Positions 11,848-41,670 of a stretch of DNA of 64,000 bases are shown here, one piece after another. The notes beneath the pieces were generated by a model. The model did not search any database. It was not told the origin of the DNA and saw nothing but the letters and a program-made list of their open reading frames with translations. Both the position numbers and the translations under genes were made by a program. Position 1 is the stretch's first letter; each line of letters starts with the position of its first letter. The DNA is from Patescibacteria group bacterium. GTDB taxonomy: Bacteria; Patescibacteriota; Minisyncoccia; Phycocordibacterales; UBA9973. The stretch covers positions 23,619 to 87,618 of the forward strand of contig JBBTUE010000001.1 in NCBI GenBank assembly GCA_038063915.1. Reading direction: 5' to 3'.

Positions 11848-11877
11848 TTGACAAGTGGGGTAGGTGTGTTGTATAAT
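11848..11877 (+). promoter_or_regulatory. consensus sigma70 promoter (TTGACA-18 nt-TATAAT) for the giant-gene pair
   Basis: TTGACAagtggggtaggtgtgttgTATAAT. The first ATG downstream (11885) is 7 nt after the -10 box. Confidence 0.55.
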
Positions 11878-11884
11878 GGAACAC

Positions 11885-14473: not shown

Positions 14474-14476
14474 TAT

Positions 14477-21420: not shown

Positions 21421-21449
21421 TATGTTATACTATAAGGGATAAATCTATT

Positions 21450-24182: not shown

Positions 24183-24192
24183 TAAGAAATTT

Positions 24193-24963
24193 ATGGAAAA
24201 TAATCCTAAAAAAAGTAAAGCTCTAATCATAACGATAATCGCGATCGTTGTGCTTGTAGCTGCTCTATACTTCTTGTTTAAAAATAGTGACAAAATTTTT
24301 GGCACAAAAGATACAGCCATTAGTAGACTATTTGCACCATTGCTTGGCTCGTCAAAAAAGAAAGCGGTGGATACTGTTAACAATACAAATACAGAACAGG
24401 GTGGGGGTACTACCGAAGACACCAGTGGAACTGTCAATAACGGGACAAATGAAGTAGTGGATGTAAATACAGGCAACAACCCGATAACAGGCGGTGTAAA
24501 CCCTATAACCCCACCACTAACACCTCTTCCGACTCCTGGAAATGATACTGCCAGTGGTGGATATACTCCTGCGCCAATTACTAACAACGATATATCACCG
24601 CTGCCTCCAATTAGAGCTCCTATCGATGAGCCGAAAATCTGCCCTGTTGAAGAAGAATTGGAATACACTAACGCAGAAAAAGACCAGCTTGCAGAACTGC
24701 TTCGTCAATATTATCTAATAGCTCCAGAGCTCAAAACTGCAGGTGAAGTCGCGATGATTAACGACGATGTAAGAAGAAATCAGGATCTAATAGATCATGC
24801 TGATACTTTAACTCTGCAATGTACTGCACAAAAGGTGAATCCAAAATACGCAGGCCCTAGTGCGACAAAGAATAATCCATATTATGGAAACTTAAATATC
24901 AAACCTGAGTTCTATGCTCCTAAACAATTCAATAGTTTAGAAGACGAGCTCAACATTTGGTAA
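24193..24963 (+). CDS. membrane-anchored hypothetical protein with Thr/Pro/Gly-rich linker
   Basis: N-terminal TM (ALIITIIAIVVLVAALYFLF), then a low-complexity NPITGGVNPITPPLTPLPTPGN region and a C-terminal globular part. Confidence 0.4.
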   Translation: MENNPKKSKALIITIIAIVVLVAALYFLFKNSDKIFGTKDTAISRLFAPLLGSSKKKAVDTVNNTNTEQGGGTTEDTSGTVNNGTNEVVDVNTGNNPITGGVNPITPPLTPLPTPGNDTASGGYTPAPITNNDISPLPPIRAPIDEPKICPVEEELEYTNAEKDQLAELLRQYYLIAPELKTAGEVAMINDDVRRNQDLIDHADTLTLQCTAQKVNPKYAGPSATKNNPYYGNLNIKPEFYAPKQFNSLEDELNIW

Positions 24964-24967
24964 CTAC

Positions 24968-27619
24968 ATGATAAGAAAACTCATCCCTTCCATCTTAATA
25001 GTTCTCATAGCCGTGAACCTATTCGCGCCTTTTACGCTTGGGATTGATAAAAAGAATAATATAGAAATAAAAAAATCAGTCGCGGAAGCTGACTTGTCTA
25101 TAACATTAGTAAAAATGAAGAGAACTAAAACATCAATCTCTTTTGGTTTTGATATTACACAACTAAGTAAGACAGATAACTTTGGCATAATAGCAGTGGT
25201 CACAAATAAAAAGGGAACTACTATGTCGAAAGAGTCTTTGGAGTTCATAAACTTCCAAGTTGGGTTAGGTGCTGGTAAAGACTGTGGAGCAATTAATGAT
25301 ACCCTTTTCACAATACCAAAAGATTCTAGAGTTGCTGGTGGTAGAGACGGTTGTGGTAGTAACTGGTTAAAAGATAATAGAAATGAGGGCTTGGCTACCG
25401 TAACTGTACCAAATTTAGTCAAAAATACACCTTATTATATAAGTTTTTTCGGCTATGCTGGAGATAAAGATATTGAAAAAAGTCTTGCCTTTCCAATATA
25501 CGACAGAGAAATTCGCACAACTTCTGATAACGAAGAAGATGATACTATAATGGAGGAACTTGGGACAACAAACTCAGACTCAGGGTACTTACCTTGGTGT
25601 ACTAGAGCTGTTTTTAAAGTTAATATTGGGGGTTGTTTTGCCCAAATTCTATACACAATTACTTTCAAGCCAACTTCATTTATTTTTGGGTTAGCTGGGC
25701 AGTTCTTTGACTTTACCTTCTTTTACTCCATAAGTGATAGCTCGTACCGATCAGGATTCGTAGTAGAGGGGTGGGGAGTAGTGCGTGACTTTGTAAATAT
25801 GTTCTTCATATTTGTCCTCCTCTATATTGCATTCTCGACAATATTATCTCTTCATGGATTTAAAACAAAAGAGATGATCATAAACGTTGTCATTATTGGA
25901 CTTCTTATAAATTTCAGTCTTTTCGCCACGCAAGTAATTATAGATACATCGAATATTCTGGCGCGCGTTTTCTATAACTCTGTAACGTCAGGCAGCGTAG
26001 ATGAAAGTACAAAGGAGTTTAAAGAAGAGAGGGGTGCACAAGGGGAGATTCAGCTTTCGGCACAAATTGTTAATATGGTTGATCCTCAGAAGCTTATAAT
26101 AAAAGCTTCAAGGGTCGGATCTACAGATAGAGGAACTACGGATAATTCGAATCAGTTTTCACGAGGTATAAGTGTTGGAACATTTATATTAGTGACTTTA
26201 CTTGCATCCGCGGTGAATGTAGTGGGTATAATTGTTTTTCTTTCTGTTGGCCTTATATTCTTAGCCCGAGTTATAGGCCTTTGGTTTGCGATGATATTCG
26301 TGCCATTCGCATTCTTCTCATATACCGTACCTGCCATGCAAGACATAGAAATGATTGGTTGGAAGAAGTGGTGGCCGGAAACTTTAAAATTGGCATTCCT
26401 AGCACCAATCTTTATGTTCTTTATGTATCTAATCATTAAATTCTTGGGTGGAAAAGAATTCTTGAAGCTCAACGGAGACAGCGGGGCAGCATTTATAATA
26501 GCAATCATTGTGCCTTTCATTTTTATAATGATTCTCCTACTCCGAGCAAAAGGTATTGCAAAAGATTTGTCTGGGAAAATTGGAGCAGCAATTACAAAAG
26601 GTGCCGTTGTAGCGGGAGGCCTTGCAGTTGCTGGTGGTGGATTGGCAGCTGCGGGTGGAGCAGCCCTTGGTAGGGGTCTGATAACGAACCCAATGAAAAT
26701 GATGCAATCGAGCCAGGCTACTAGAACTGCTGCACTAAAGAATTTCAGTATGGTTAAACCAGCTACTTGGGGCAAGGCTATGAGCGCACGTATGGCGAAT
26801 TTTAGTGTTAAGGGTGGCGGTAAGGGAGTTGGCACAGGAGTATATGATGTAGCTACCAGAAGAGAAATCAAAAGGGAGGGATCTAATAAACTAAGAGATA
26901 GACTACTTGGTATTAAAGATAGAAAAGCTGACAAGGGTCATGCATCACAATTACTCGACGAACAAGCGGATAAAATACAGAAGGGTGCAAAATACTCAGA
27001 TCTTTCTGCTCCAGAACAAGCTAAAGCTAAGACAACTATTAACAACAACGAGGTATCAAAAGCTTTGTTTGGTAAGGAATCTGATAAATTAGATAACTCA
27101 CAGATTTCTATGCTTTCAGGTATTGTAAATACAAACGGAGCAATCAATACTGCAGCACTGTCTACAGCAGCAACTACCTTGGGTAAAGATATATCGAAAT
27201 TCTACGATCCTACTAATGCTGACCCAACAAAAAGAGCAGTAAAGGATGCCAATCATCATGAGAAGATATACAACAAACCAGATAAAGATCACGTGGGTAA
27301 CGCGCTTGCATTCGCAGCGGGTGGAACGTACGACATAAGAAATATGAAGAGTGGTGGCCTTACTGCACTTGGCATTGCCTCAGCATTCCTAGGAATCGCT
27401 CCTGTATTTGCGCTCGCTATGTCAGCTCATACATCTGGCGCCCTAAGGACAGGTTTGAAAAAGTTCACAGGAGTAGATCATGGATTCTCGCAAAAGGACT
27501 TCTTGAAAGACTTGAGTCACACTTTAGACACAGCATTAAGTAGTATTAAAATTAGTGTAAAAACCGACGGCAAGGGTCACAGTGATGCAAAAGCAAAAGT
27601 AGGTGGGGGAGGACATTAA
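24968..27619 (+). CDS. TrbL/VirB6-like polytopic T4SS membrane protein with N-terminal secreted domain
   Basis: 883 aa: signal peptide plus a ~220-aa extracytoplasmic domain, 5-7 predicted TM helices (e.g. FVNMFFIFVLLYIAFSTILSL; VVIIGLLINFSLFATQVIID; FILVTLLASAVNVVGIIVFLSVGLIFLARVIGLWFAMIFVPFAFF; LAFLAPIFMFFMYLIIKFL; FIIAIIVPFIFIMILLL) and a Gly/Ala-rich hydrophilic tail (GAVVAGGLAVAGGGLAAAGGAALGRG) as in TrbL. Position next to the PrgI/VirB3 and VirB4 genes supports the call. Confidence 0.5.
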   Translation: MIRKLIPSILIVLIAVNLFAPFTLGIDKKNNIEIKKSVAEADLSITLVKMKRTKTSISFGFDITQLSKTDNFGIIAVVTNKKGTTMSKESLEFINFQVGLGAGKDCGAINDTLFTIPKDSRVAGGRDGCGSNWLKDNRNEGLATVTVPNLVKNTPYYISFFGYAGDKDIEKSLAFPIYDREIRTTSDNEEDDTIMEELGTTNSDSGYLPWCTRAVFKVNIGGCFAQILYTITFKPTSFIFGLAGQFFDFTFFYSISDSSYRSGFVVEGWGVVRDFVNMFFIFVLLYIAFSTILSLHGFKTKEMIINVVIIGLLINFSLFATQVIIDTSNILARVFYNSVTSGSVDESTKEFKEERGAQGEIQLSAQIVNMVDPQKLIIKASRVGSTDRGTTDNSNQFSRGISVGTFILVTLLASAVNVVGIIVFLSVGLIFLARVIGLWFAMIFVPFAFFSYTVPAMQDIEMIGWKKWWPETLKLAFLAPIFMFFMYLIIKFLGGKEFLKLNGDSGAAFIIAIIVPFIFIMILLLRAKGIAKDLSGKIGAAITKGAVVAGGLAVAGGGLAAAGGAALGRGLITNPMKMMQSSQATRTAALKNFSMVKPATWGKAMSARMANFSVKGGGKGVGTGVYDVATRREIKREGSNKLRDRLLGIKDRKADKGHASQLLDEQADKIQKGAKYSDLSAPEQAKAKTTINNNEVSKALFGKESDKLDNSQISMLSGIVNTNGAINTAALSTAATTLGKDISKFYDPTNADPTKRAVKDANHHEKIYNKPDKDHVGNALAFAAGGTYDIRNMKSGGLTALGIASAFLGIAPVFALAMSAHTSGALRTGLKKFTGVDHGFSQKDFLKDLSHTLDTALSSIKISVKTDGKGHSDAKAKVGGGGH

Positions 27620-28727: not shown

Positions 28728-29141
28728 GTGCAATTTAAAGTTCCACAATTTATCGATATTGAGGACAAACTTTTTGGTCCTTTCACTTTTCGACAATTCG
28801 TATATATGGTTGGTGGGGGAGGAATGATATTTGTGATTTACAGAACACTACCTCTTTGGATTGGAATTTTTATAATTTTACCTGTTGCTGGGCTCACTCT
28901 TCTATTAACTTTCTACAAAATCAATACGAAGCCTTTTATATACTATCTCCAAGCAGCGATAAACTATCTAGTATCGAGCAAGCTATACATATGGAAACAA
29001 CGATTAGTAAAGCCAGGCTCTGAACAAGAAGAGTCTGCTAATGCTCTGCAGCCTACCTCTGTCGTGCCTATCTTGTCGTCCAACTCCCTAAAAGATCTTT
29101 CGTGGAGTTTAGATATACAAGAAAAAGATACTAATAGTTAG
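28728..29141 (+). CDS. PrgI-family (VirB3-like) small T4SS membrane protein
   Basis: MQFKVPQFIDIEDKLFGPFTFRQFVYMVGGGGMIFVIYRTLPLWIGIFIILPVAGLTLLL: N-terminal F-x-GPFT-RQF motif followed by a two-helix hairpin as in the PrgI family (PF12666). Sits immediately upstream of VirB4. Confidence 0.5.
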   Translation: MQFKVPQFIDIEDKLFGPFTFRQFVYMVGGGGMIFVIYRTLPLWIGIFIILPVAGLTLLLTFYKINTKPFIYYLQAAINYLVSSKLYIWKQRLVKPGSEQEESANALQPTSVVPILSSNSLKDLSWSLDIQEKDTNS

Positions 29142-29167: not shown

Positions 29168-29815
29168 ATGGCAATCAATGCTCGTGCTGCTCAGGATTTC
29201 GTACCAATTAAAGAGATTCGTAATGGCGTCATAATACTCAAAGATGGCGGGTTTCGAGCAATCTTAATCGCTTCATCTATCAATCTATCTCTAAAATCTG
29301 CTGACGAGCAGAGTGCAATTATCAATCAATTTCAATCATTCTTGAATGGTTTAGATTTTTCTACCCAGATAGTCGTCCAATCAAGAAGGCTAGACATAAG
29401 ACCTTATCTTCTGACTCTAGAAGCTAGAGAGAAAGAGCAGACTGAAAAACTTTTGAAAATACAGACGAAGGAATACATAGATTTTATAAGAGCTTTCACT
29501 GACCAAGTAAATATAATGACCAAGACATTCTTCATCGTGGTACCATATAGCCCGACAATTATGAAGTCAAGTGAAGGTATTGTCGACAGATTGATAGGCG
29601 GTGGCCAAAAGAAACAAATTGAAAATACTAAAAAGGCTTTAGATATGGCAAGTTTTGAAGAGAAGCGTAGCCAACTCGACCAGAGAGTCGGAGTCATCAT
29701 ATCTGGACTTGGCGGACTTGGTATACGTAGCACTCAGTTGAAAACCGAAGAGATAGTCGAGCTTTTCTACAAGACATTTAATCCTGGAGATATTAGTCAG
29801 GGTATGAAATTATAA
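29168..29815 (+). CDS. VirB4-family ATPase, N-terminal domain (separate ORF)
   Basis: QDFVPIKEIRNGVIILKDGGFRAILIASSINLSLKSADEQSAIINQFQSFLNGLDFSTQIVVQSRRLD matches the VirB4/TraC N-terminal domain pattern. The stop (29813-29815) is separated by 1 nt from the ATG of the ATPase ORF. Confidence 0.55.
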   Translation: MAINARAAQDFVPIKEIRNGVIILKDGGFRAILIASSINLSLKSADEQSAIINQFQSFLNGLDFSTQIVVQSRRLDIRPYLLTLEAREKEQTEKLLKIQTKEYIDFIRAFTDQVNIMTKTFFIVVPYSPTIMKSSEGIVDRLIGGGQKKQIENTKKALDMASFEEKRSQLDQRVGVIISGLGGLGIRSTQLKTEEIVELFYKTFNPGDISQGMKL

Positions 29816-29816
29816 T

Positions 29817-31655
29817 ATGGGGATTTTCTCTAAAATTTTTGGTGGTAGTAATGTATCTCGAGCAAAGAGTACTCTTGTGATGCCTGTTATCCCTTCTGAA
29901 ATATATAGAGCGGCAACTCTTGAACTCCAAGACATCATCGCGCCTTCGGCTCTTGAAATTACCCCGAAGGGTATCAATCTCGGAGACAAAATTGCTCGTA
30001 CATTTTTTGTTATTTCATACCCAAGATATCTGACCGATAACTGGTTTTCGCCGATTATTAATCTTGATAAAGTTTTTGACGTTTCTATATTTATTCACCC
30101 TATCGACACTTCGGATATATTACGATCTTTCCAAAAGAAAGTAGCCGAGGTTCAAAGTCAGATATCTATCCGCGAATCAAAAGGCCTTGTTCGTGACCCA
30201 ATGCTTGATACTGCCTATCGTGACTTGGAAAGCCTGCGTGATAACTTGATGCAAGCCCAAGAGAAAATGTTTGATGTCGGCTTATACATCACTATCTATG
30301 CAGACAACGAGAACGATTTATTCAAAACTGAAAGTGAGATCAAGTCATTACTTGAATCAAAGCTTATATATTTAAAACCTGCATTGTTCCAGCAAGACGA
30401 GGGGTTTAAAAGTATTATTCCTCTCGGCACAGATTTGCTTGGGATACATCAAAAGCTCAATACTGAGCCACTCTCTAGCTTATTTCCATTCGTATCTTTT
30501 GACCTGACCTCTGATAAGGGTATTTTATACGGGGTAAATCGTCACAATTCTAGCCTTATAATATTTGATAGATTCTCTCTACCAAACTACAACTCCATCA
30601 CTTTTGCAACGTCGGGCGCTGGTAAATCTTATGCCACCAAGCTCGAAATTATACGCACGCTCATGTTTGATACCGAAGTAATAGTCATCGACCCAGAACG
30701 CGAGTACGAATATTTATCTGAAGCTGTTGGTGGTAGATACTTTAATATCGCACTTTCTTCTGACCACCATATCAATCCTTTTGACCTGCCTATACCGAGC
30801 TCTGACGAGACTCCAGCTGACGTGCTTCGGGCAAACACTATAAACTTGGTGGGGCTATTCCGGATAATGCTCGGAGGTCTCACTCCAGAAGAAGATTCTA
30901 TTATCGACCGCGCCATCACTGAAACCTATGCTCTTAAAGACATCACTGCTGATTCTAACTTTGCAAATATTGAACCGCCACTTCTCACAGACTTTGAAAT
31001 GGTGTTGGCTGGCATGGAAGGAAGTGGATCTCTCATTCAACGTTTGGCGAAATTTACTCACGGCTCTTGGGCTTCATTCCTCAACCAAGCATCAAATGTA
31101 GACATCAATCGTAAATTCGTCGTCTTCTCAGTGCGAGACATGGAAGACGAGCTCAAACCTGTAGCCATGTATATCGTGACTCATTATATATGGAATGCGA
31201 TTAGAAAAAATATAAAGAAAAGATTACTCGTAGTAGACGAGGCGTGGTGGATGATGAAATCAGAAGATACTGCCTCATTCCTATACTCTATTGCAAAGAG
31301 AGGACGTAAATACTACCTCGGGCTTGCCACTATCACCCAAGACGTAGGGGACTTCATGAAAAGCCCTTATGGAGTGCCAATTGTCACCAACTCGTCGATT
31401 CAACTATTGTTAAAACAGTCACCTTCGACTGTCGACGTACTACAGAAAACTTTTAATTTAACAGACGAAGAAAAATACCTACTTCTTGAAGCAAATGTCG
31501 GAGAGGGGATATTCTTTGCTGGGCTCAAACACGTAGCAGTGAAGACTATCGCATCATATACTGAGGACCAGATTATAACCTCCGATCCATCACAAATCCT
31601 TGCTATCAAGAAAGCAAAGGACGACTTGGCGGCAACAGAAGCAGTAAAACCTTAG
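29817..31655 (+). CDS. VirB4/TrbE/CagE-family T4SS ATPase, C-terminal ATPase portion
   Basis: Walker A FATSGAGKSYATK, VIVIDPEREY...INPFDL, Walker B LLVVDEAWWMM (DEAW), motif C GLATITQDVGDF. No TM and no VirD4-type features. Confidence 0.8.
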   Translation: MGIFSKIFGGSNVSRAKSTLVMPVIPSEIYRAATLELQDIIAPSALEITPKGINLGDKIARTFFVISYPRYLTDNWFSPIINLDKVFDVSIFIHPIDTSDILRSFQKKVAEVQSQISIRESKGLVRDPMLDTAYRDLESLRDNLMQAQEKMFDVGLYITIYADNENDLFKTESEIKSLLESKLIYLKPALFQQDEGFKSIIPLGTDLLGIHQKLNTEPLSSLFPFVSFDLTSDKGILYGVNRHNSSLIIFDRFSLPNYNSITFATSGAGKSYATKLEIIRTLMFDTEVIVIDPEREYEYLSEAVGGRYFNIALSSDHHINPFDLPIPSSDETPADVLRANTINLVGLFRIMLGGLTPEEDSIIDRAITETYALKDITADSNFANIEPPLLTDFEMVLAGMEGSGSLIQRLAKFTHGSWASFLNQASNVDINRKFVVFSVRDMEDELKPVAMYIVTHYIWNAIRKNIKKRLLVVDEAWWMMKSEDTASFLYSIAKRGRKYYLGLATITQDVGDFMKSPYGVPIVTNSSIQLLLKQSPSTVDVLQKTFNLTDEEKYLLLEANVGEGIFFAGLKHVAVKTIASYTEDQIITSDPSQILAIKKAKDDLAATEAVKP

Positions 31656-31697: not shown

Positions 31698-32687
31698 GTG
31701 ATACTATCTCGAGGAAAAATCTTATTCGGTCTGCTTTTTTCGCTAAGTGTATTATTTACACCAGGAATAGGAAGTGCAGCATCGGAAATAGGGCTACAAA
31801 GTGGTGATATTGAAGTAGAGACAATACCAGAGAACCCAGAGCCATATCAAGACGTCACTATCAACTTAACTAGCTTTGCAACTGACTTGAATAAGGCTAC
31901 TATCGTCTGGCAAAGTGGCGGACGTACAGTTCTATCTGGAATAGGCCGTACTAGTTATTCATTTAAGGCGCTTGGACCAAATATAACTATAACCTTGGAC
32001 GTAAGCATAACTCCACCCAACTCTACTGATAAAGTTACAAAAAGAATCTCTATTAACCCCTCCGAGATAGATATACTATGGGAAGGGATTGACTCTTATA
32101 CTCCACCATTTTACAAAGGTAAATCATTCGTATCTAGCGGTGGAATGATCAAAGTAGTCGCTCTCCCAACTACAAGCACAAGTGGTAGAACCAATGCTAC
32201 GTATAGTTGGAAAAATAACGACAACGCAGTATTAAATGCTTCTGGGTACAATAAAGATTCTTACATCTTTGTAAACGATGAATTAAACACCAGAGAGAAC
32301 ATATCAGTCACTGCTTCAACTGTGAACGGGAGTTATAATGCAACCAAAAATTTAAATATCCCGATAGTAAATCCAAAAATTATTTTTTATAAGAAATCTC
32401 CAACCGAAGGAGTATTGTACAACAAAGCACTTATAAATGAGACATTTATAAGTGAAGACGAATTTACTTTAGTAGCTGTGCCTTACTTTTTGTCACTAAA
32501 AGGAAACGAGAACGACTTTAGTTATAAGTGGCAAATAAACGGGGAAGGGATAGAAACTCCTTCCAGAAAAACCGAGCTTACTGTACGCCCATCATCCAAA
32601 GGGGGGTATGCAACTATTAGCTTAGTATTAGAAAATTTAAACGCCTTTTTCCAAAAGGCGAGCGGACAGATAAAGATAAACTTATAG
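31698..32687 (+). CDS. secreted beta-rich hypothetical protein
   Basis: Signal peptide (ILFGLLFSLSVLFTPGIGSAAS), then repeated beta-strand-rich segments (e.g. YQDVTINLTSFATD / TITLDVSITPPNS). T4SS-associated position. Confidence 0.4.
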   Translation: MILSRGKILFGLLFSLSVLFTPGIGSAASEIGLQSGDIEVETIPENPEPYQDVTINLTSFATDLNKATIVWQSGGRTVLSGIGRTSYSFKALGPNITITLDVSITPPNSTDKVTKRISINPSEIDILWEGIDSYTPPFYKGKSFVSSGGMIKVVALPTTSTSGRTNATYSWKNNDNAVLNASGYNKDSYIFVNDELNTRENISVTASTVNGSYNATKNLNIPIVNPKIIFYKKSPTEGVLYNKALINETFISEDEFTLVAVPYFLSLKGNENDFSYKWQINGEGIETPSRKTELTVRPSSKGGYATISLVLENLNAFFQKASGQIKINL

Positions 32688-32688
32688 T

Positions 32689-35337
32689 ATGAAAAAATTA
32701 TACGGATACATTTTAATAGTAATACTCCTCTTGACTTCAATTCTACCACTCACTACTAGCGCGATAGTTAAGGGAAGTATTAATTTTTCTCAAATCACTT
32801 CAGATCTAAGTGGTGAATATACTCTCAATAATAAAATCTTAAGTTTTAAAGTAGCAAACAAGGCAGTAAATGGAACATACAAATCAGTCACGTATTCGCT
32901 GATCGTGCGAGTCGCTAAATCCCCAGTCAAAAACGGGACATACGAGTTTGTAACCCAGAAAGGGTCTGTGTCCGAACCCCTTTATATATCAAATTCTGAG
33001 GAAGCGAATTCAGGATATAAATCAAATAATAGATTGGCGGAGGGGCAGTTTGATAATATTGTTGATGGTAAATATTTTTTGGTTATTCAAGTAGTAAATA
33101 AGTTCCAAACAAAATATGATGGTACTAACGATACTGTAGATATAAATAAGAACGTACAGTCTAGTGAGATAACCGTGCCGGAACCAGCAAATACTGCCAT
33201 AAATCCAATCCTTTCAGTCACTGCAGTAACTACTGATAAAACAATCCAAGTTTCAGTTAGTTACGATACGAAGATTGATACCTCAGTTGATGGCATCTCA
33301 GGAGTTATCACTGGTAACGTGGTTGGTATGGGAGGTGGAGCTTATACCCAAGTACTTGACCCAACTTTTAACCCCAAAGATGGGAGAGTGGGCGCAACTG
33401 GTAAAAAAACATTTGGATTTGCAGAAATAGCTAATTTAACTCCAAACATAAAGTATACAGTTACTGTAACAGCAAAAGCAGGGACTGTAACAAAATATAC
33501 AAAGACTGCTAACTTTACGACAAAGAAAGCAACTGTGGTGACAAGCCCACCGGTTACTAATAACGGGGACCAGACTGGGAACCAAAATACTAATCCACCG
33601 ATAAAGGATACAAACAATCAGGACCAAGCTACTACTTTTGATCCTAAAAAAGATACTCCGGTTGATAACAATTCATACACACTACTCGCTCCAATAGGTG
33701 GGGTAGATAAAGTTCCAATAAACGATATTGGTAGTTATTTTAACATCATCTTCCAAATAGCTATCGGCATATGTGGCGCGTTAGCAGTGGTAATGATAGT
33801 TATCGGCGGAGTGCAGTATATGGGGACTGAATCAGTATTTGGTAAGACAGAAGCCAAAGGACAGATAGTGAAGGCAATTTTAGGGCTTTTGATAGCACTA
33901 GGCGCATATGCACTGTTGAATACCATTAGCCCTGCTCTGACGGGGAAAGGGGGGCTGACATTGGCCACGGTAAACGTATCAATTATGGACACTGTTGACG
34001 TACCCGAAGGAGGTGATATAGATGAAGTAATTACTGACGAGCAAGTTAAAAGTGGAAAACTACCTGGTATTAAGTGTGCCTCTGGATCACCTTCAAATGG
34101 TTTTTGTATGTTTGGCACGATAGATAATCCAAAACCGACTGGAGAAATACCAGCATTGGTTGATTTTTTGAAAAAAAATCCAAATCAGAGAATAACCCAA
34201 ATAGATATAATACACAAAAATAAAGTCGAAAAGTTTGTTTTCACTTTGAGTGATGGTTCTAAATACGCTACTATGGGTATAGGGCATGGTCCAGGCAACC
34301 AAAAATCAACCATGGACTGGAAATTTTCTGAACAAGGAAAAGAATACAGTGGTGACATGAAAACCCCTATAAGAACGTGGACAATTATTAATAAAGATAG
34401 AGCGAAAAACCAAAATACTGTAATAAGAAGTACTCGTAAAGGTAAAGATGGCCTTGGTTACAGTATGGGTGGAGCAAAGTTCAACCTTAATTATAGAGGA
34501 ATCGCAATACACTCGAACAGGAAAAATAGTCAGGGAACTTCAGCGGGTTGTATATTAATGTATAACGACGACTTGTTTGCACTTTATCCTTACATAAAAA
34601 CAAATGGTAGTATTAAGGTTGTGACTACCACTACAGATACATACCCTGGGAGTACTTACACAAATCCTAGTACAAATACGAATACAAACATCGGCGCTAG
34701 TTCCCAGAAATTATGTACCGATGTGGCTAGTTGTCAAAAGTTGTGCACTTCAACTAACAATGGAAACTCATACACCGGTAATCCCCCAGGAGTTCTAGAC
34801 CCAAATAGCACAACTGCATTAACTGGTATTCCCCTTGTTGAAGCTCGGTGTAAAGACTGTAACAATGTAATACCGAGAGGATCGCCTCAAGTCATTGCAG
34901 CTCTAAAGAAAATCGAACCAGCAGTTAAGGAATTAATTAGTAAAAATGAGATACCGAACCGAAAATATAATTTTAGGGTATATTCTGCATATCGATCAGC
35001 CAAAGACCAAATACGAGTTATGTGTATTAACCCAAAGACAGGTGGGACAAACACTGTCACACAAGCTGATTTAGGAAACCTATACGCCTACCCAGCAACA
35101 AGTAACCATGGCACTGGTACTGCTGTTGACTTCAAATTCTACTTTGATAATACAGAAGTATTCAACTATGGAGCTACAAGAAGCGAGGGGAGTATAGAAA
35201 AAATTATGGACAAAGCTGGTCTTCAAAGACTTATCGGGGAATCATGGCACTTCCAAACAAATAGTAGCTCAAAAACATGCAAGTACCCTAGTTGCCCTGC
35301 ACCTAAATATGAGATAGATACTACCCTCGAAGTTTAA
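32689..35337 (+). CDS. multidomain secreted protein: Ig-like N-domain + VirB2/TrbC-like pilin hairpin + L,D-transpeptidase(YkuD)-like domain + M15/VanY-like zinc peptidase domain
   Basis: Signal peptide. Pilin-like two-helix segment YFNIIFQIAIGICGALAVVMIVIGGVQYMGTESVFGKTEAKGQIVKAILGLLIALGAYALLNTISPALTGKGG (compare the VirB2 ...TLTGGG end). YkuD-like IAIHSNRKNSQGTSAGCILMYNDD. M15B/VanY-like YSAYRSAKDQ, ATSNHGTGTAVDF (SxHxxGxAxD), and ESWHFQ. Confidence 0.6.
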   Translation: MKKLYGYILIVILLLTSILPLTTSAIVKGSINFSQITSDLSGEYTLNNKILSFKVANKAVNGTYKSVTYSLIVRVAKSPVKNGTYEFVTQKGSVSEPLYISNSEEANSGYKSNNRLAEGQFDNIVDGKYFLVIQVVNKFQTKYDGTNDTVDINKNVQSSEITVPEPANTAINPILSVTAVTTDKTIQVSVSYDTKIDTSVDGISGVITGNVVGMGGGAYTQVLDPTFNPKDGRVGATGKKTFGFAEIANLTPNIKYTVTVTAKAGTVTKYTKTANFTTKKATVVTSPPVTNNGDQTGNQNTNPPIKDTNNQDQATTFDPKKDTPVDNNSYTLLAPIGGVDKVPINDIGSYFNIIFQIAIGICGALAVVMIVIGGVQYMGTESVFGKTEAKGQIVKAILGLLIALGAYALLNTISPALTGKGGLTLATVNVSIMDTVDVPEGGDIDEVITDEQVKSGKLPGIKCASGSPSNGFCMFGTIDNPKPTGEIPALVDFLKKNPNQRITQIDIIHKNKVEKFVFTLSDGSKYATMGIGHGPGNQKSTMDWKFSEQGKEYSGDMKTPIRTWTIINKDRAKNQNTVIRSTRKGKDGLGYSMGGAKFNLNYRGIAIHSNRKNSQGTSAGCILMYNDDLFALYPYIKTNGSIKVVTTTTDTYPGSTYTNPSTNTNTNIGASSQKLCTDVASCQKLCTSTNNGNSYTGNPPGVLDPNSTTALTGIPLVEARCKDCNNVIPRGSPQVIAALKKIEPAVKELISKNEIPNRKYNFRVYSAYRSAKDQIRVMCINPKTGGTNTVTQADLGNLYAYPATSNHGTGTAVDFKFYFDNTEVFNYGATRSEGSIEKIMDKAGLQRLIGESWHFQTNSSSKTCKYPSCPAPKYEIDTTLEV

Positions 35338-35351
35338 CTTATAACAATAAT

Positions 35352-36683
35352 ATGCCAAGAAAAACAATAATCATTTTCATAACTGTATTTATCCTTATCG
35401 GTGGAGGGGTTCTTGGCTATTATTACTACACAAGTAAATCAGGAACTAATAATGGTAGTACAGATAGTACTGGATATAATCAATTTAATCCTTTTGGTAA
35501 CAACCAAGGGGCTGACTCTTCTTCAAATACAAACGGTGATCAAAACACCAGCGATACCATAGGGGGTAATGGGGAAGTAGTCGAAGATGGAGGGTTACCG
35601 CAGGTTTTAAAACTCCATAAAATAACAGACTTCGCAGTAGCGGGGGCAACATACTTTGAGGAAGAAAGGCTAATACCAGAAACGGTAGTGGCGGAACCTG
35701 AACAAGTAGTAGAACCTTCACCAAAAACTAAGGCTAAAATAGTAGTGAAGAAGCCTGTGGCGCCAAAATTTGAAATAGTTCCATCTCTACGTTATGTAGA
35801 GCGAGTGACTGGTCACATATACCAGATGTATTTGGACAACAAAGTTGAGAGTAAAATTTCGAACTCAACTATTCCAAGTATCTACGAAGCTACTTGGGAC
35901 AGTAAAGCTACTTCTGTTATTTACAGGTACTTAGCGGAAGATAATAAAACTATTAATAGTTTTATGGCTACTCTTGGTGGGGCAAAGGGAGAATTTTTGC
36001 CAACAAATATTACTAGTGTAAGCTTGTCACCAGATGGAACTAAATTCTTTTATTTAACTAAGGTCCCGGGAAGTGTGATTGGGTACACTAGAGCATTTGG
36101 TGAGGATAAAATATCAAAAGTTTTCAATTCTCCATTTTCTGAGTGGCTATCGCAGTGGGCATCCCCACAGAAAATATTTCTAACAACAAAACCTTCCTCT
36201 TCTGTAGGGGGTAGCCTTTTCATGTTAAATATAGGTACAGGTTCAATGTCAAAAGTACTTGGGGGAGTATTAGGCCTTACAACTCTAGCTAACCCTGATG
36301 GATCAGCCGTTCTATACAATTCTTCTACTTCATCGGGCCCAATGCTCCAAGTAATGAATATAGACAAGCATACAACCCTAGATATTTTCACTTATGGGTT
36401 ACCAGAGAAATGCATATGGAGTCTGGATAAAATTAATATTTATTGCGCAGTACCAAATGAAATTAGTGGTAAAGATTACCCGGATACTTGGTACCAAGGA
36501 AGGATATCTTTCGACGATCATTTTGTAAAAATAAATACAGAGACACAAAGTACGACAGAGATATTAGACTCGGTAAATGAAACTGCTGTTGATGCCACAA
36601 ATCTATTTCTAAGTAAAAAAGAGGACACACTATTTTTCATAAATAAAAAAGACTCCACCCTCTGGAGCCTAGACTTAAAATAA
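35352..36683 (+). CDS. membrane-anchored hypothetical protein with TolB/PD40-like beta-propeller repeats
   Basis: N-terminal TM (IIIFITVFILIGGGVLGYYYY), a Gly/Asn/Ser-rich linker, then repeats such as LSPDGTKFFYLT, NPDGSAVLYNS, WSLDKINIYCAVPN, suggestive of PD40/TolB-type blades. Confidence 0.35.
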   Translation: MPRKTIIIFITVFILIGGGVLGYYYYTSKSGTNNGSTDSTGYNQFNPFGNNQGADSSSNTNGDQNTSDTIGGNGEVVEDGGLPQVLKLHKITDFAVAGATYFEEERLIPETVVAEPEQVVEPSPKTKAKIVVKKPVAPKFEIVPSLRYVERVTGHIYQMYLDNKVESKISNSTIPSIYEATWDSKATSVIYRYLAEDNKTINSFMATLGGAKGEFLPTNITSVSLSPDGTKFFYLTKVPGSVIGYTRAFGEDKISKVFNSPFSEWLSQWASPQKIFLTTKPSSSVGGSLFMLNIGTGSMSKVLGGVLGLTTLANPDGSAVLYNSSTSSGPMLQVMNIDKHTTLDIFTYGLPEKCIWSLDKINIYCAVPNEISGKDYPDTWYQGRISFDDHFVKINTETQSTTEILDSVNETAVDATNLFLSKKEDTLFFINKKDSTLWSLDLK

Positions 36684-38741: not shown

Positions 38742-40094
38742 ATGAATACAAAAGAGCTTTGGAATAACTGTCTTTCTGAGATTGAACTTAATATTTCAAA
38801 AGCAAATTTTACTACGTGGTTTAAAAACACATCAATAGTAAAAGAGGATGAGGGGACGCTTTTTATTGGTGTGCCAAACGAATTTGTTAAAGATTGGTTA
38901 TATAATAAATTTCACAAACTAATATTAAAAACACTTATAACACATGAAGAAGGTGTTAGAAATATTGAGTATATAATAGCGAAACACGAGCAAGTATCTA
39001 AATCCAGTGAGCAAGATTTTATAAGACAAACTACCAACACAAATAAAGAGCTACCCCTCAATGATCTATATATAAACAAGGACGACAACTTAAATCCTAA
39101 ATACAACTTTAACTCTTTTGTAGTGGGGCCGTTCAACGAGCTAGCTTACGCTGTTGCCCAAGCCATTATTACTAACCCGGGGCAGAATTATAATCCATTT
39201 TTCATTTATGGTGGTACTGGACTTGGTAAGACTCATATTATCCAAGCAATTGGTAATATTATAAAAACAAAGCACCCATCAAAAAAGATATACTACGTTA
39301 GTCTAGAGAGATTTGCTATTGATTATATTAACTCAATACAAAACAAAAATCCAAATTCATTTAAAGAAAAGTATAGAAAATACGACGTGATTATTATGGA
39401 TGATATCCAATTTATCTCTGGTAAGGATAAAACTCAAGAGGAGTTATTCCACTTATTTAATACTTTATATGAGAGCAATAAACAAATAATCTTCTCTTCA
39501 GACAAACACCCTAATTTCATACAAGGGCTAGAGGATAGACTACAATCCAGATTCGCTTCTGGTATGACTGTTCAAATCATTGAGCCTGATTATGAGTCAC
39601 GGGTTGCAATTATAAAGGCCAAATTTGAATCAACAAACTGTGTCGTTACAGATGATGTTATTTCATACCTGGCTGAATCCCTAGAGGGTAATATTCGTGA
39701 GCTTGAGGGTAGTTTAAACACAGTTATATGCCAATCTCAATTAAAGAACAAATCTCTAACCTTAGCTGAGGTAAAAACCCTAATAAAAAACAACATTAAA
39801 CCCAAAAAAACAGTAGCAATAAAGGATATTGTGCGTATTATCGCCACACACTATGGCATTTCAGAGGAAATAATTTACGAGAAAACTCGTAGAAAAGAAA
39901 TAGTTAGAGCTCGACAAGTTGCAATGTACATCCTGCGCGAGGACTTTAACATCTCTTACCCATTAATAGGTCAAAAGTTAGGTGGCCGTGACCACACAAC
40001 TGTTATTCACTCTCACTTAAAAATAAGGAGTGACCTAAAAACAGACCCGTCGTTATTACAAGAGATAGAGAAGATAAGAATTATGTTTAAGTAG
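38742..40094 (+). CDS. dnaA: chromosomal replication initiator protein DnaA
   Basis: AAA+ Walker A (IYGGTGLGKTHII), Walker B (VIIMDDIQFI), sensor and arginine finger (DRLQSRFASGMTVQI), and C-terminal DNA-binding domain (VRARQVAMYILRE...LIGQKLGGRDHTTVIHS). The ATG at 38742 (MNTKELWNNCLSEIE) is the likely start; TATAAT at 38729-38734. Confidence 0.9.
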   Translation: MNTKELWNNCLSEIELNISKANFTTWFKNTSIVKEDEGTLFIGVPNEFVKDWLYNKFHKLILKTLITHEEGVRNIEYIIAKHEQVSKSSEQDFIRQTTNTNKELPLNDLYINKDDNLNPKYNFNSFVVGPFNELAYAVAQAIITNPGQNYNPFFIYGGTGLGKTHIIQAIGNIIKTKHPSKKIYYVSLERFAIDYINSIQNKNPNSFKEKYRKYDVIIMDDIQFISGKDKTQEELFHLFNTLYESNKQIIFSSDKHPNFIQGLEDRLQSRFASGMTVQIIEPDYESRVAIIKAKFESTNCVVTDDVISYLAESLEGNIRELEGSLNTVICQSQLKNKSLTLAEVKTLIKNNIKPKKTVAIKDIVRIIATHYGISEEIIYEKTRRKEIVRARQVAMYILREDFNISYPLIGQKLGGRDHTTVIHSHLKIRSDLKTDPSLLQEIEKIRIMFK

Positions 40095-40300
40095 CCTGTG
40101 TATAAGATGTGTTTATAAAAAAATAGAGAGTGGACAACTTCACAAAATCCTACTTAAATCTAAATAGTCCCCAATAAATCATTTTTATAAAAACATAACC
40201 GCTGTAAAAAACATATATAAAACATATATAAAAAAGTAATCCACATAATCACACCCATAATAGTAATAATAAATATTAATAGATAAATATAAACAATACA
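40095..40300. other. dnaA-dnaN intergenic AT-rich region: candidate oriC / DNA unwinding element
   Basis: Very AT-rich 206 bp with a direct repeat AAACATATATA x2 (40209-40230) and DnaA-box-like tAATCCACA (40237-40245) and TGTGtATAA (40098-40106). Confidence 0.4.
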
Positions 40301-41398
40301 ATGAAAATAGAATGCTCAATAGATAAAATAAAAAACGCCCTGATCACAGTTGAAAGATTAACAGGAAAAAATCTTACATTACCAGTTCTTAGTTCAATTC
40401 TGTGGGTTGCGAATAATAAAATTCTTAAACTACGTGCCACAAACTTAAACATCGGTATAGAGATTAGTGTACCTTCTAAAATAGACAAAGAAGGTGTTAT
40501 TGCTATAAAAGGGGATGTATTATCGTCTCTTTTCTCTCAACTATCTGGAGAAGGCACAGTATATTTTGAGACTATAAATAATAATTTATCTGTTAAAACG
40601 AAACAAAATACTATTTTAATAAAAAGTGTTCCTTATGAGGATTTTCCAACAATACCAGTGATAACTGGCGATAGTATAACAATACCAACTCAAAAATTAA
40701 TAGAGGGAATAAAATCAGTCTACTACAGTTCTTCGACTTCTGAGATAAAACCAGAAATAGGGAGTGTTTATATATATCCAGAGAATGATTTATTAATTTT
40801 TGTTGCCACAGATTCTTTTCGTTTAGCCGAAAAGAAAATAAAAATAAAACAAAAACTATCCTTTCCAGGCATATTAATACCCTTCAAAAATACTACAGAA
40901 ATAATCAGAGTTTTTGAAAATACTACCGAAGATGTAAAAATTACACTCCAAAAAAACCAAATATCTTTTACAACATCTAGCATATACTTAACATCTAGAG
41001 TGGTAGATGGGTCGTTCCCCGACTACAAACAGATAATACCAAAAGAGTCTAGTACTGAAGCCGTTATTCTAAAACAAGACTTAATATCCTCTCTAAAGAT
41101 TTCAAATGTGTTTTCTGATAAATTTAACCAAATAACGGTCATAATAAAACCACAAGAAAAATCTTTCGAGATTGAGGCTAGAAACGTAGATGTAGGTGAA
41201 AACACAACCTCTGTCGGGGGGGCTCTTTCAGGGGAAGATGTCTCAGTTAATTTTAATTATAAGTATATATTAGACTGTTTTCAGTCAGTAACATCTGATA
41301 GTTTAAATTTAAAATTAAATGGGAATAACAAGCCGATGATCATAGAGCCAGTAGGTGACACATCTTTTAGGTATTTAATAATGCCAATGAATAAATGA
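40301..41398 (+). CDS. dnaN: DNA polymerase III beta subunit (sliding clamp)
   Basis: 365 aa with a three-domain beta-clamp pattern (MKIECSIDKIKNALITVERLTGK...; domain-3 LNLKLNGNNKPMIIEP). Synteny with dnaA. Confidence 0.9.
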   Translation: MKIECSIDKIKNALITVERLTGKNLTLPVLSSILWVANNKILKLRATNLNIGIEISVPSKIDKEGVIAIKGDVLSSLFSQLSGEGTVYFETINNNLSVKTKQNTILIKSVPYEDFPTIPVITGDSITIPTQKLIEGIKSVYYSSSTSEIKPEIGSVYIYPENDLLIFVATDSFRLAEKKIKIKQKLSFPGILIPFKNTTEIIRVFENTTEDVKITLQKNQISFTTSSIYLTSRVVDGSFPDYKQIIPKESSTEAVILKQDLISSLKISNVFSDKFNQITVIIKPQEKSFEIEARNVDVGENTTSVGGALSGEDVSVNFNYKYILDCFQSVTSDSLNLKLNGNNKPMIIEPVGDTSFRYLIMPMNK

Positions 41399-41399
41399 T

Positions 41400-41663
41400 A
41401 TGGATTACAACCACATCGATAGTTTTCTAGAGAGATTTAAAAAGATTTTATTTAAAGAGGAGGCGACACTTGAAGTTATCACAGGGGTCATAACTAAACA
41501 CATTGAATCACCTATAAAACCCCAATCAATTAAGATTAAAGGCCCTATTGTATATATAAATGAGTCACCAATTCTTCGTAACGAAGTATTAATTCACAAA
41601 GAAGGTATATTAAACGATCTCAAGGAATTCCTACCTCGTCATAGATTTAGTGATATACGATAG
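41400..41663 (+). CDS. DUF721-family (DciA/RemB-like) small protein
   Basis: 87 aa. KGPIVYINESPILRNEVLIHKEGILNDLKEFLP resembles the DUF721 core. Typical location after dnaN. Confidence 0.35.
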   Translation: MDYNHIDSFLERFKKILFKEEATLEVITGVITKHIESPIKPQSIKIKGPIVYINESPILRNEVLIHKEGILNDLKEFLPRHRFSDIR

Positions 41664-41670
41664 TTGGTAT

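Follow-up and report, generated by a model that had tools for sequence, protein, structure and literature searches.

Genomic context of the fusion gene

The fusion gene (32689..35337, + strand) encodes a predicted secreted membrane-hairpin protein of 882 aa with a VirB2-family core and two peptidoglycan-enzyme heads, and is the second gene 3' of virB4 in a Patescibacteria (Paceibacteria) T4SS operon adjoining dnaA. All positions refer to the window, the whole 64,000-nt stretch of DNA that was analysed. The genes follow the order VirB6-like, PrgI, split VirB4, 329-aa protein, fusion gene and 443-aa protein, after which come jag/yidC/rnpA/dnaA/dnaN. The first gene (24968..27619, +) encodes a polytopic membrane protein of 883 aa, recognised by its multi-TM sequence, that may be designated VirB6-like by its relative position; the gene of RAAC4_OD1_1 at the matching position (two genes 5' of prgI) is scored as VirB6 in Table S3 of PMC12102498. 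The PrgI/VirB3-like protein follows (28728..29141, +; Pfam PrgI 36.9 bits). VirB4 (29168..31655, +) is split into two genes, of which one encodes a 215-aa TrsD/TraC-like N-domain (29168-29815, +) with NCBIfam VirB4/TrsD N-terminal matches and the other the 612-aa ATPase (29817-31655, +; P-loop_TraG 87.6 bits). VirB4 is 75-95% identical in 63/63 related loci; in the comparison that also covered the core and ends of the fusion protein its median identity is 88%.

The gene between virB4 and the fusion gene (31698..32687, +) encodes a secreted beta-rich protein of 329 aa with a weak aBig_2 match, which is found in 73/80 loci at a median identity of 53%. The fusion gene starts 1 base past the TAG of this gene, and 14 nt beyond its own 3' end begins the gene for a membrane-anchored protein of 443 aa (35352..36683, +). 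This protein, present in 74/80 loci, has weak TolB beta-propeller similarity (TolB chains, E 0.0035), and its positional orthologues in loci L001 and L003 carry PG_binding_1. The fusion gene is locked into the virB4 operon: virB4 lies 5' on the same strand in all 63 GTDB loci with enough flank, at a distance of ~1.0-1.1 kb in most of them (range 31 bp to 3.8 kb), and 4/4 metagenomic loci show this operon order irrespective of the type of head. A search of the six-frame translation of the window with the family profile matched the fusion ORF alone, with no second pilin gene; the next match (E 0.017) is antisense to a long ORF.

Integrity of the ORF and domain assignment

The fusion gene is one uninterrupted frame, and the motifs quoted in the first-pass annotation were all confirmed in place, namely the hairpin from YTLLAP (330-335) to LTGKGG (417-422), IAIH (605-608), SAGC (618-621), YSAYRS (765-770), SNHGTGTAVD (805-814) and ESWH (851-854). 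Hydropathy analysis identified three hydrophobic stretches only, at residues 1-29 (signal peptide), 349-380 and 391-415. When the whole protein was compared with Pfam, YkuD scored above its threshold (36.3 bits, cut-off 23.4) and T4SS_pilin (24.8 against a curated cut-off of 26.6), VanY (24.5 against 25) and Peptidase_M15 (23.9 against 27) fell just below theirs. Scanned as isolated segments, all four exceed their cut-offs (T4SS_pilin 31.3, YkuD 41.0, VanY 27.8, Peptidase_M15 28.3), and the pilin hairpin, YkuD-like and M15/VanY-like domains named in the first-pass annotation are upheld on this basis. The AF2 model of the whole protein is poor (mean pLDDT 49), so the folds of the heads are assigned from sequence.

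The joining of these domains in a single polypeptide is real, as the frame is open and the architecture of N-domain, core and head is conserved in relatives. The junction between N-domain and core is unbroken in 75/75 complete homologous ORFs, and at least 150 aa follow the core in 72 of the 75. A missed stop, for which a check had been proposed at first, is ruled out at the N-domain/core and core/head junctions because this fused architecture is conserved; the junction between the two heads is confined to the 882-aa protein and is considered below.

N-terminal region and pilin core

The Sec-type signal peptide (32689..32763, +; residues 1 to ~25) falls within the hydrophobic window and is modelled by AF2 as a helix at 2-16; cleavage would occur between LTTSA and IVKG. 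It is followed by a hypervariable beta-rich region (32764..33648, +; residues 26-320) with a T/N/P/D-rich linker at its end (282-328), for which a homologue is detectable in 1/80 related loci. This region probably forms Ig/fn3-like domains. Pfam analysis of the whole protein gave a weak fn3 match (E 0.015), AF2 places beta strands at 170-280 (pLDDT ~60-77), and TIG/Big/fn3-like domains occupy the N-terminal position in relatives. An isolated-segment scan of residues 1-324 returned no Pfam family, and the Ig-like N-terminus of the first reading has weak support.

The VirB2-family core (PF18895, T4SS_pilin; 33661..33963, +; residues 325-425) opens with YxLLAPIG and a small beta-hairpin and continues with helix 1 (349-380), the loop MGTESVFGKTEAK (381-390) and helix 2 (391-415). 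AF2 and hydropathy agree on a pair of hydrophobic helices with a short polar loop between them and a signal peptide ahead, and the AF2 model of the core segment (pLDDT 80.8) places the helices at 23-58 and 62-92 in segment numbering. Among 25 isolated cores of the family, T4SS_pilin (PF18895) was matched by all 25 and TrbC/VirB2 (PF04956) by 18 (E<=0.1; best 2.5e-5), whereas any other Pfam family was matched by at most 5. The core of the 882-aa protein itself reaches E 0.1 and 13.2 bits against PF04956, and NCBIfam provided a weak match to the Mbov_0395 pilin-like conjugal transfer protein. The hairpin is thus a pilin-family hairpin, as had been proposed, rather than a generic TM hairpin, and a generic membrane anchor is rejected because of this HMM specificity and the synteny with virB4.

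Comparisons with individual pilins were less informative. Alignment of the core with the verified VirB2 of Agrobacterium by hhalign gave a probability of 18% and the wrong register, a profile search of PDB sequences with the core found no pilin, and fold searches returned generic helical hairpins only and did not discriminate. Across all 63 homologues the core shows 50-70% identity, and it is present in 80/80 loci with a median identity of 60%; its invariant residues are Y330, L333, P335, Y350, K386, G399, L400, A403, L410 and P415. Past helix 2 conservation is loose, being limited to P415 and L417, and given this and the hhalign result the 'VirB2-like TLTGG ending' described earlier is a superficial likeness. 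A pilin of this family would be expected to be a small stand-alone protein of ~70-190 aa, from which the 882-aa fusion departs.

C-terminal enzyme heads

Head 1 (33982..34623, +; residues 432-645) is a divergent YkuD domain (PF03734) of predicted L,D-transpeptidase fold. Its putative catalytic residues His608 (34510-34512, +) and Cys621 (34549-34551, +) align in register with the His and Cys of the solved L,D-transpeptidase 9tyw, and 10 YkuD-headed relatives retain the two residues, with (T/S)xGC replacing SHGC. The canonical YkuD motif is (S/T)HGC(I/V)R. Head 1 reads SAGCIL and has neither the second His nor the Arg after the Cys, so it may not be a classical transpeptidase; within this YkuD subfamily the residue before the Gly is variable and the Arg is present in some relatives only. 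This type of head occurs in 5-6 of 80 loci, and the Pfam scan also detected a weak resemblance to Tlde1, a T6SS effector.

A linker that is T/N/S-rich in composition (34624..34680, +; residues 646-664) leads to head 2 (34681..35334, +; residues 665-882), a predicted M15/VanY-type zinc peptidase with a Cys-rich lead-in. The zinc and catalytic motifs of M15/VanY enzymes (PF02557, PF01427) are SxHxxGxAxD and ExxH, and direct reading of head 2 gives S805-N-H807-G-T-G-T-A-V-D814 and E851-S-W-H854. A PDB sequence search with head 2 found no match. The entire module is 52% identical to the sole head of the family member P0001, and the type is found in 1/80 loci only (L026). The double head of YkuD and M15 is absent from every other family member examined.

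Fixed core and exchanged ends in related loci

The fusion is not peculiar to one gene; it is the norm in the clade, in which no fewer than 236 species genomes and 399 clusters were counted at E<=1e-30. The relatives are mostly 300-620 aa in length and single-copy. The core is retained in them and the ends are exchanged: the N-domain, head 1 and head 2 of the 882-aa protein are detectable in 1, 6 and 1 of 80 loci, respectively. Heads in the other loci belong to VanY, NlpC/P60, YkuD, M15_4, SLT, SLT_2, Amidase_2 or Amidase_5, or are without a known family, and together the heads make up at least 13 BLAST groups. The head type differs even between species whose VirB4 proteins are at least 92% identical. 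The head groups unk-A, C and D have no recognisable family, so it is unproven for the relatives that the head is always a peptidoglycan enzyme. Locus L076 encodes a bare pilin of 156 aa in the identical slot, in which the signal peptide is directly followed by YNLLAPLP, and this is taken as the ancestral form.

In published tables for near-complete relatives the family gene is the sole PF18895-type VirB2 match. In the rows of Table S3 of PMC12102498 for three such genomes, the gene two positions from virB4 is the only VirB2 match in RAAC4_OD1_1 (our L028) and in GW2011_GWF2_30_133 and the only PF18895 match in GW2011_GWE2_31_40, and no VirB1 stands in these rows.

Proposed role and alternative explanations

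We consider it fairly probable that the fusion protein is the VirB2-family subunit of the chromosomal, origin-proximal Patescibacteria T4SS with VirB1-like wall-breaching built in, and that the subunit of this clade has gained variable N-terminal Ig-like domains and one C-terminal peptidoglycan-active head, with two heads uniquely here. The Sec signal peptide would first be removed, and the two helices would enter the membrane as a hairpin whose conserved loop (ESVFGKTEAK) faces the cytoplasm while its two ends lie outside. This hairpin would then dock into the VirB3/VirB4/VirB6 machine as any VirB2 does, which would hold the head or heads in the wall at the apparatus, where they would cut or remodel peptidoglycan and so enable the machine to cross the wall. 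That wall might be the cell's own, that of the host, or both. The heads would thereby supply in cis the VirB1/PrgK/CwlT function that a published survey did not detect in most VirB2-containing genomes. The two heads of the 882-aa protein could act one after the other, with the M15/VanY D,D-carboxypeptidase shortening pentapeptide stems to tetrapeptides, the donors that are used or cleaved by a YkuD enzyme. The pilus-tethered wall-remodelling enzyme suggested at first pass is close to this explanation and compatible with it.

Since the family gene is the sole VirB2 homologue detected in near-complete genomes of the clade, any T4SS pilus or stalk may consist of the fusion protein. Such a conjugative-type filament or channel collar, with a wall-cutting enzyme and an adhesin-like domain displayed outside on each subunit, could serve an ultra-small epibiont as an enzymatic 'drill' into the host wall, and the rapidly swapped heads and N-domains would set host range, although we regard this extension as rather unlikely.

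A host-directed weapon or host-range module is a possible, though not a likely, alternative. The hairpin would deliver or anchor the protein and the ends would act on the host wall, being swapped to match its chemistry in a manner likened to polymorphic toxins or phage tail lysins. Both end modules turn over extremely beside a conserved core and the 75-95% conserved VirB4, the head families span many different peptidoglycan bonds, and the Tlde1 resemblance of head 1 points in the same direction, as do the essentiality of the Patescibacteria T4SS for epibiotic growth and its lack of a relaxase. Neutral swapping of any wall-cutting head predicts the same pattern, however, and there is no variable immunity-like gene, the next gene downstream being the one conserved in 74/80 loci. 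This explanation also overlaps with that of a VirB2 subunit carrying a wall enzyme rather than excluding it.

It is improbable that the 882-aa product is a processed polyprotein, which would be cleaved before YxLLAP and after helix 2 into a small pilin and free N-terminal and enzyme fragments. Canonical VirB2/TrbC proteins are matured by proteolysis, low-complexity linkers flank the core, and the wider family includes 'poly-pilins' with several hairpins. In the bare pilin of L076, YxLLAP lies directly behind the signal-peptide cleavage region and so marks the natural mature N-terminus. Against processing, no S26/TraF-like or other peptidase was detected among the operon genes scanned, and conservation after helix 2 is loose.

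An assembly or annotation artefact, in which the two-headed ORF arose through a missed stop or as a chimera of two strain variants, is very improbable. The junction between the heads (residues ~645-665) is unique, in that no homologue bridges it and no second two-headed protein occurs among the family members examined, and head swapping between strains would provide the raw material for chimeras. The frame is nevertheless open over its full length, repeats and a composition break were sought at this junction and neither was found, the composition being homogeneous, and pieces that share no sequence are unlikely to have been joined in frame. The inter-head linker also has the T/N/S-rich style of the other linkers of the protein, and the two remaining junctions are confirmed in 72-75 homologues. 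Least probable of all is a housekeeping wall-remodelling enzyme with a two-helix anchor and a coincidental T4SS neighbourhood, for although the fold and direct VirB2 comparisons are non-specific and PBP1, yidC and rnpA also lie near dnaA, the slot after virB4 is fixed in 63/63 loci and filled by a bare pilin in L076, pilin HMMs are matched consistently where generic transmembrane families are not, and such an enzyme would not switch catalytic family between species whose VirB4 proteins are 92-95% identical.

Significance

Southlakia epibionticum, the one Patescibacteria species that has been tested, requires its T4SS for epibiotic growth, and the VirB2 subunit with built-in wall enzymes would be a defined candidate for the step of contact or penetration. 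Most VirB2-containing genomes in the current survey are without VirB1, from which it was concluded that pilus biogenesis is independent of VirB1. For a large clade of Paceibacteria the sequences described here suggest otherwise, namely that the wall enzyme is integrated into the VirB2 subunit. The exchangeable heads form a natural set, some members of which are of unknown family and may be new peptidoglycan hydrolases, and a correspondence between the type of head and the wall of the host is testable. The VirB2-family hairpin also tolerates large domains at both of its ends, which bears on the assembly of such pilins.

Comparison with known systems

The closest known proteins are the Patescibacteria T4SS pilins (PF18895; SEML1_0014-0019 in Southlakia epibionticum; PMC12102498, PMC10633639), which share their HMM family with the fusion core and belong to the same kind of operon, with PrgI/VirB3, TrsD, VirB4 and VirB6 near dnaA. 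The pilins described from such operons stand alone, are ~100-185 aa long and often occur in arrays with a mean identity of ~25%, whereas the fusion protein has 882 aa, a 50-70% conserved core and enzyme heads. The gene type is already counted as 'VirB2' in Table S3 of Quinonero-Coronel et al. 2025 (PMC12102498), as far as the table rows named above extend; no description of a pilin-hydrolase fusion was found in the literature searched, including the Patescibacteria T4SS papers PMC12102498 and PMC10633639 (Wang et al. 2023).

SEML1_0007 and SEML1_0006 of S. epibionticum have the same operon position relative to virB4, which they directly follow, and a similar content of peptidoglycan enzymes: SEML1_0007 ends in a Hedgehog/DD-peptidase (M15-like) domain, while SEML1_0006 combines lysozyme-like with Cys-peptidase domains. 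Tn-seq showed that neither gene is dispensable for epibiotic growth. They differ in that no PF18895 match is reported for either, the pilins of Southlakia being separate genes.

PrgK (pCF10), TraG (pIP501), CwlT (ICEBs1) and Agrobacterium VirB1 are likewise peptidoglycan-cleaving enzymes encoded inside a T4SS operon, a placement that the predicted activities of the fusion gene would share. They are multidomain proteins, membrane-associated in monoderms, whose presumed role is to make a local opening in the wall through which the machine can pass. Their SLT/lysozyme and CHAP/NlpC domains are carried on separate proteins without a pilin module, whereas in the fusion protein the VirB2-family hairpin would itself be the anchor and the heads are of the YkuD and M15 types. 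SLT/lysozyme or CHAP-NlpC domains homologous to those of VirB1/TrsG/CD419 are absent from the 882-aa protein, and SLT, SLT_2 and NlpC/P60 heads are found in positional orthologues of its gene.

Enzyme-bearing filament subunits and swappable lysin heads are known from flagellinolysin (proteolytic flagellins), phage tail-associated lysins and polymorphic toxins. These also combine a conserved assembly or delivery core with hypervariable, sometimes enzymatic surface modules, but they are unrelated protein families, and polymerisation of the fusion protein is hypothetical. The pairing of the two heads has a counterpart in Enterococcus faecium, where the M15B enzyme DdcY, a VanY-type D,D-carboxypeptidase, reportedly makes the tetrapeptide donor for the YkuD enzyme Ldt(fm). 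The two enzyme families are the same, but DdcY and Ldt(fm) are separate proteins of wall synthesis, whereas the heads described here share a single T4SS polypeptide, in which the YkuD head has diverged and reads SAGC where SHGC would be expected.

Domain organization of the fusion gene

The gene at 32689–35337 (+) is an uninterrupted ORF of 882 aa in the window, with its ATG one base past the stop of the upstream gene. The first-pass annotation had described a pilin-like hairpin joined to YkuD-like and M15/VanY-like domains, and direct reading found all of its quoted motifs at the residues assigned to them. When separate segments were scanned against Pfam, all four called families exceeded their curated cut-offs, confirming this observation: T4SS_pilin (31.3 bits, cut-off 26.6), YkuD (41.0 bits, cut-off 23.4), VanY (27.8 bits, cut-off 25) and Peptidase_M15 (28.3 bits, cut-off 27). 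In the whole-protein scan YkuD is above threshold, with T4SS_pilin, VanY and Peptidase_M15 just under. Residues 1–324 matched no Pfam family in the segment scan; the AF2 model gives this region a beta-rich structure, and there is a weak fn3 match. Hydropathy analysis identified a signal peptide and exactly two more hydrophobic stretches, at residues 349–380 and 391–415.

The pilin core

As had been proposed, the hairpin core (residues 325–425) belongs to a pilin family and is not a generic hairpin, since PF18895 is matched by all 25 isolated cores. The canonical TrbC/VirB2 family PF04956 is matched by 18 of the 25 at E≤0.1 (best 2.5e-5), and beyond the pilin families none is matched by more than five. 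NCBIfam gave a weak match to a mycoplasma ICE pilin-like protein, and in the AF2 model of the core (pLDDT 80.8) two long helices come after a small beta-hairpin. Alignment of the core with the verified Agrobacterium VirB2 by hhalign was negative, and a core profile search found no pilin among PDB sequences. The C-terminal resemblance to VirB2 through a TLTGG ending did not survive comparison, as it is not conserved in relatives. Membership of the core in PF18895 is supported by these profile matches, and the link to classical VirB2 is suggested by weak but consistent HMM matches, context and published usage.

The related locus L076 (5908–6378; GTDB MAG JBBTYN010000002.1) encodes a bare 156-aa pilin at exactly the fusion gene's place in the operon, flanked by 326-aa and 448-aa genes. 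ENYNLLAPLP and the hairpin come straight after its signal peptide, and the gene shows what appears to be the ancestral or minimal state. Because of this bare pilin, the YxLLAP motif is read as the usual start of the mature protein, and the fused forms as elaborations of an ordinary pilin gene.

A family of fused pilins

The fusion is not peculiar to this gene but is one of a family, with long sequence after the core in many species. A search of 5.8 billion proteins identified 63 relatives of approximately 490–700 aa, all of which share query residues ~310–435 at 50–70% identity and differ over the remainder. A Pfam scan of the protein-search relatives found T4SS_pilin in 50 of 64 proteins, N-terminal TIG domains, and C-terminal VanY (27), YkuD (11), SLT (6), NlpC/P60 (4), Amidase_2 (1) and M15_4 (1) domains. 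Among 1.84 billion cluster representatives, the core profile matched 29,942 clusters at E≤1e-3, of which 399 also passed E≤1e-30. Most of the top matches are 300–620 aa long, with the core mid-protein. Scanning a single genome from each GTDB species placed the core in at least 236 genomes. Among the matches listed are 80 loci, whose 75 complete ORFs range from 156 to 1288 aa; 72 of these 75 carry at least 150 aa after the core. Pfam domains in the GTDB loci are VanY (19), NlpC/P60 (8), YkuD (5), M15_4 (4), SLT (3), SLT_2 (3), Amidase_5 (3) and Amidase_2 (2), and the heads, as the C-terminal domains are termed here, fall into at least 13 groups by BLAST clustering, several without a Pfam family.

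Several head groups gave no Pfam match at E≤0.1 (L005:6319–6792, L030:6322–6945, L008:6322–6987, L056:6292–6888 and L079:6322–6966). Carried on a conserved core, such heads may represent domains not yet recognised, wall-active or of another kind. The core profile also retrieved giant "poly-pilins" (P0065, P0067, P0074, P0143, P0068, P0136 and P0064), one of them a 1775-aa protein with 17 tandem VirB2-like hairpins and others with 7–11; a 443-aa relative in this set has two tandem cores and an SLT-like Cys-rich head. The poly-pilins resemble pilin arrays that have been joined into one ORF.

Operon and genome neighbourhood

The fusion gene sits in a co-directional block that begins with a polytopic 883-aa protein, VirB6-like by position, followed by a 355-aa protein and PrgI/VirB3. 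VirB4 is split in the window between a separate gene for a TrsD/TraC-like N-domain (215 aa; 29168–29815 (+)) and one for the ATPase (612 aa; 29817–31655 (+)). A secreted 329-aa protein is encoded directly upstream of the fusion gene and a membrane-anchored 443-aa protein directly downstream (35352–36683 (+)). The latter begins with a membrane helix, includes a low-complexity stretch and weakly resembles TolB beta-propellers (E 0.0035); its positional orthologues in loci L001 and L003 contain PG_binding_1. This conserved protein may be a wall-binding T4SS component.

Directly 3' of the block are jag, yidC, rnpA, dnaA, dnaN, a class A PBP gene and a class I tRNA synthetase gene (Trp/Tyr-type, PF00579), with ksgA and uvrD upstream of the block. 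The same arrangement has been reported for the Patescibacteria T4SS in Paceibacteria and Microgenomatia (PMC12102498), and the closest genomes, all MAGs, carry the labels Paceibacterota, Nomurabacteria or Parcubacteria. Cumulative GC skew levels off at ~36–38 kb, consistent with a replication origin close to dnaA, and the lowest G+C of the window (0.30) is at 40001–42000, in the region of dnaN and the intergenic DNA after it. Large ORFs of unknown function, all in one direction, lie at 11864–17395 and 20548–24963 (+) and may be further T4SS or surface components; ORFs of 869 and 972 aa, one of them weakly matching a lamin-tail domain, are upstream of uvrD/ksgA, and those of 290, 910 and 256 aa are between ksgA and the VirB6-like gene. 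A small 23S_rRNA_IVP (four-helix bundle) gene is found beside prgI at two related loci, just upstream of it in L001 (5468–5848) and between prgI and the TraC-like gene in L002 (5929–6279); the window has no gene at this place.

Mosaic conservation

Upstream flank of at least 3.5 kb was available for 63 GTDB loci, and in all 63 virB4 is upstream on the same strand, mostly ~1.0–1.1 kb away, a distance of one gene (31 bp to 3.8 kb overall). Across these species the VirB4 ATPase is 75–95% identical to that of the window and far more conserved than its neighbours. Median identity is 88% for VirB4 (72 loci with a match), 80% for DnaA (62), 60% for the pilin core (80 of 80 loci), 53% for the upstream 329-aa protein (73) and 45% for the downstream 443-aa protein (74). 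The query N-domain (residues 26–320) is found in 1 of 80 loci, head 1 (the YkuD module) in 6 and head 2 (the M15/VanY module) in 1. Species with VirB4 at least 92% identical differ in their heads (two unknown types, Amidase_2, NlpC/P60 and VanY), and gene order between the VirB6-like gene and dnaN is the same in four metagenomic loci whose heads are YkuD, SLT, NlpC/P60 or without a Pfam match. Because of this mosaic conservation and the head differences at near-identical VirB4, the core is read as a fixed machine part and the N- and C-terminal ends as exchangeable cassettes.

The two enzyme heads

In an alignment with a solved L,D-transpeptidase, head 1 (residues 432–645) matches the catalytic His and Cys with H608 and C621, both of which are kept in ten YkuD-headed relatives. 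In its subfamily [TS]xGC replaces the canonical SHGC; this protein has SAGC, with Leu in place of the Arg that would come next, so head 1 may be a hydrolase or carboxypeptidase and not a classical cross-linker. Head 2 (residues 665–882) has 52% identity to the single head of the protein-search relative P0001 and carries SxHxxGxAxD and ExxH, the motifs of VanY/VanX-type zinc peptidases. In Enterococcus faecium, a VanY-type D,D-carboxypeptidase supplies tetrapeptide donors to a YkuD enzyme in an established two-step pathway, and by analogy head 2 and head 1 could work in sequence. Two enzyme heads were found in no other member among the relatives examined. In the assembled sequence, the junction between them (~645–665) shows no repeats and no composition shift.

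Proposed function and comparison with known systems

After removal of the signal peptide, the hairpin is predicted to enter the membrane with its two ends on the outer side. Its loop, nearly invariant at E381, S382, F384, G385, K386, T387, E388, A389 and K390, would face the cytoplasm, where VirB4 could engage it; in Agrobacterium, VirB2 is extracted from the membrane by VirB4. At the apparatus, the heads would sit within the wall, where they would cut or remodel the peptidoglycan of the cell itself, of its host or of both. No adjacent immunity-type gene was found beside the rapidly changing heads and N-domains. Their rapid turnover fits host-directed adaptation, and neutral exchange fits it also.

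The T4SS locus, its near-oriC position and VirB2-like pilins are already published (PMC12102498, PMC10633639, PMC12857230), and entries in Table S3 of PMC12102498 tabulate the fusion gene type as VirB2. The papers covered by our literature searches do not describe this VirB2 as a 300–900-aa multidomain protein with peptidoglycan enzymes or enzyme swapping among close relatives around a conserved core, nor do they give the fusion as an account of the missing VirB1. For the near-complete genome RAAC4_OD1_1 (locus L028), the nine T4SS-related rows of that table include CDS 537, two genes past virB4 (CDS 535), as the only VirB2 row, and no VirB1 row. In our GTDB census this VirB2 gene encodes a 469-aa protein with a YkuD-type head. 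In entries of the same source, GW2011_GWF2_30_133 has a single PF18895 match two genes from virB4, GW2011_GWE2_31_40 has the equivalent gene and one distant T_virB2 match far from virB4, and a further Nomurabacteria genome carries a classical pilin array in place of such a gene. The family profile found no second pilin within the 64-kb window. VirB1 has been judged unnecessary for VirB2 biogenesis, since most genomes are without it (PMC12102498). The domain assignments indicate that, in the fusion-gene clade, a wall enzyme is fused to VirB2, and such a predicted enzyme-bearing VirB2 would account for the absence of VirB1 in this clade.

Pilin arrays of other Patescibacteria share ~25% identity (PMC12102498), whereas the core here is highly conserved, which fits a subunit needing to fit a highly conserved machine. 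By analogy, experiments in Southlakia epibionticum support the wall remodelling proposed for the heads: there, virB4 is immediately followed by two genes essential for epibiotic growth, one for an M15-like DD-peptidase protein and the other for a lysozyme/Cys-peptidase protein.
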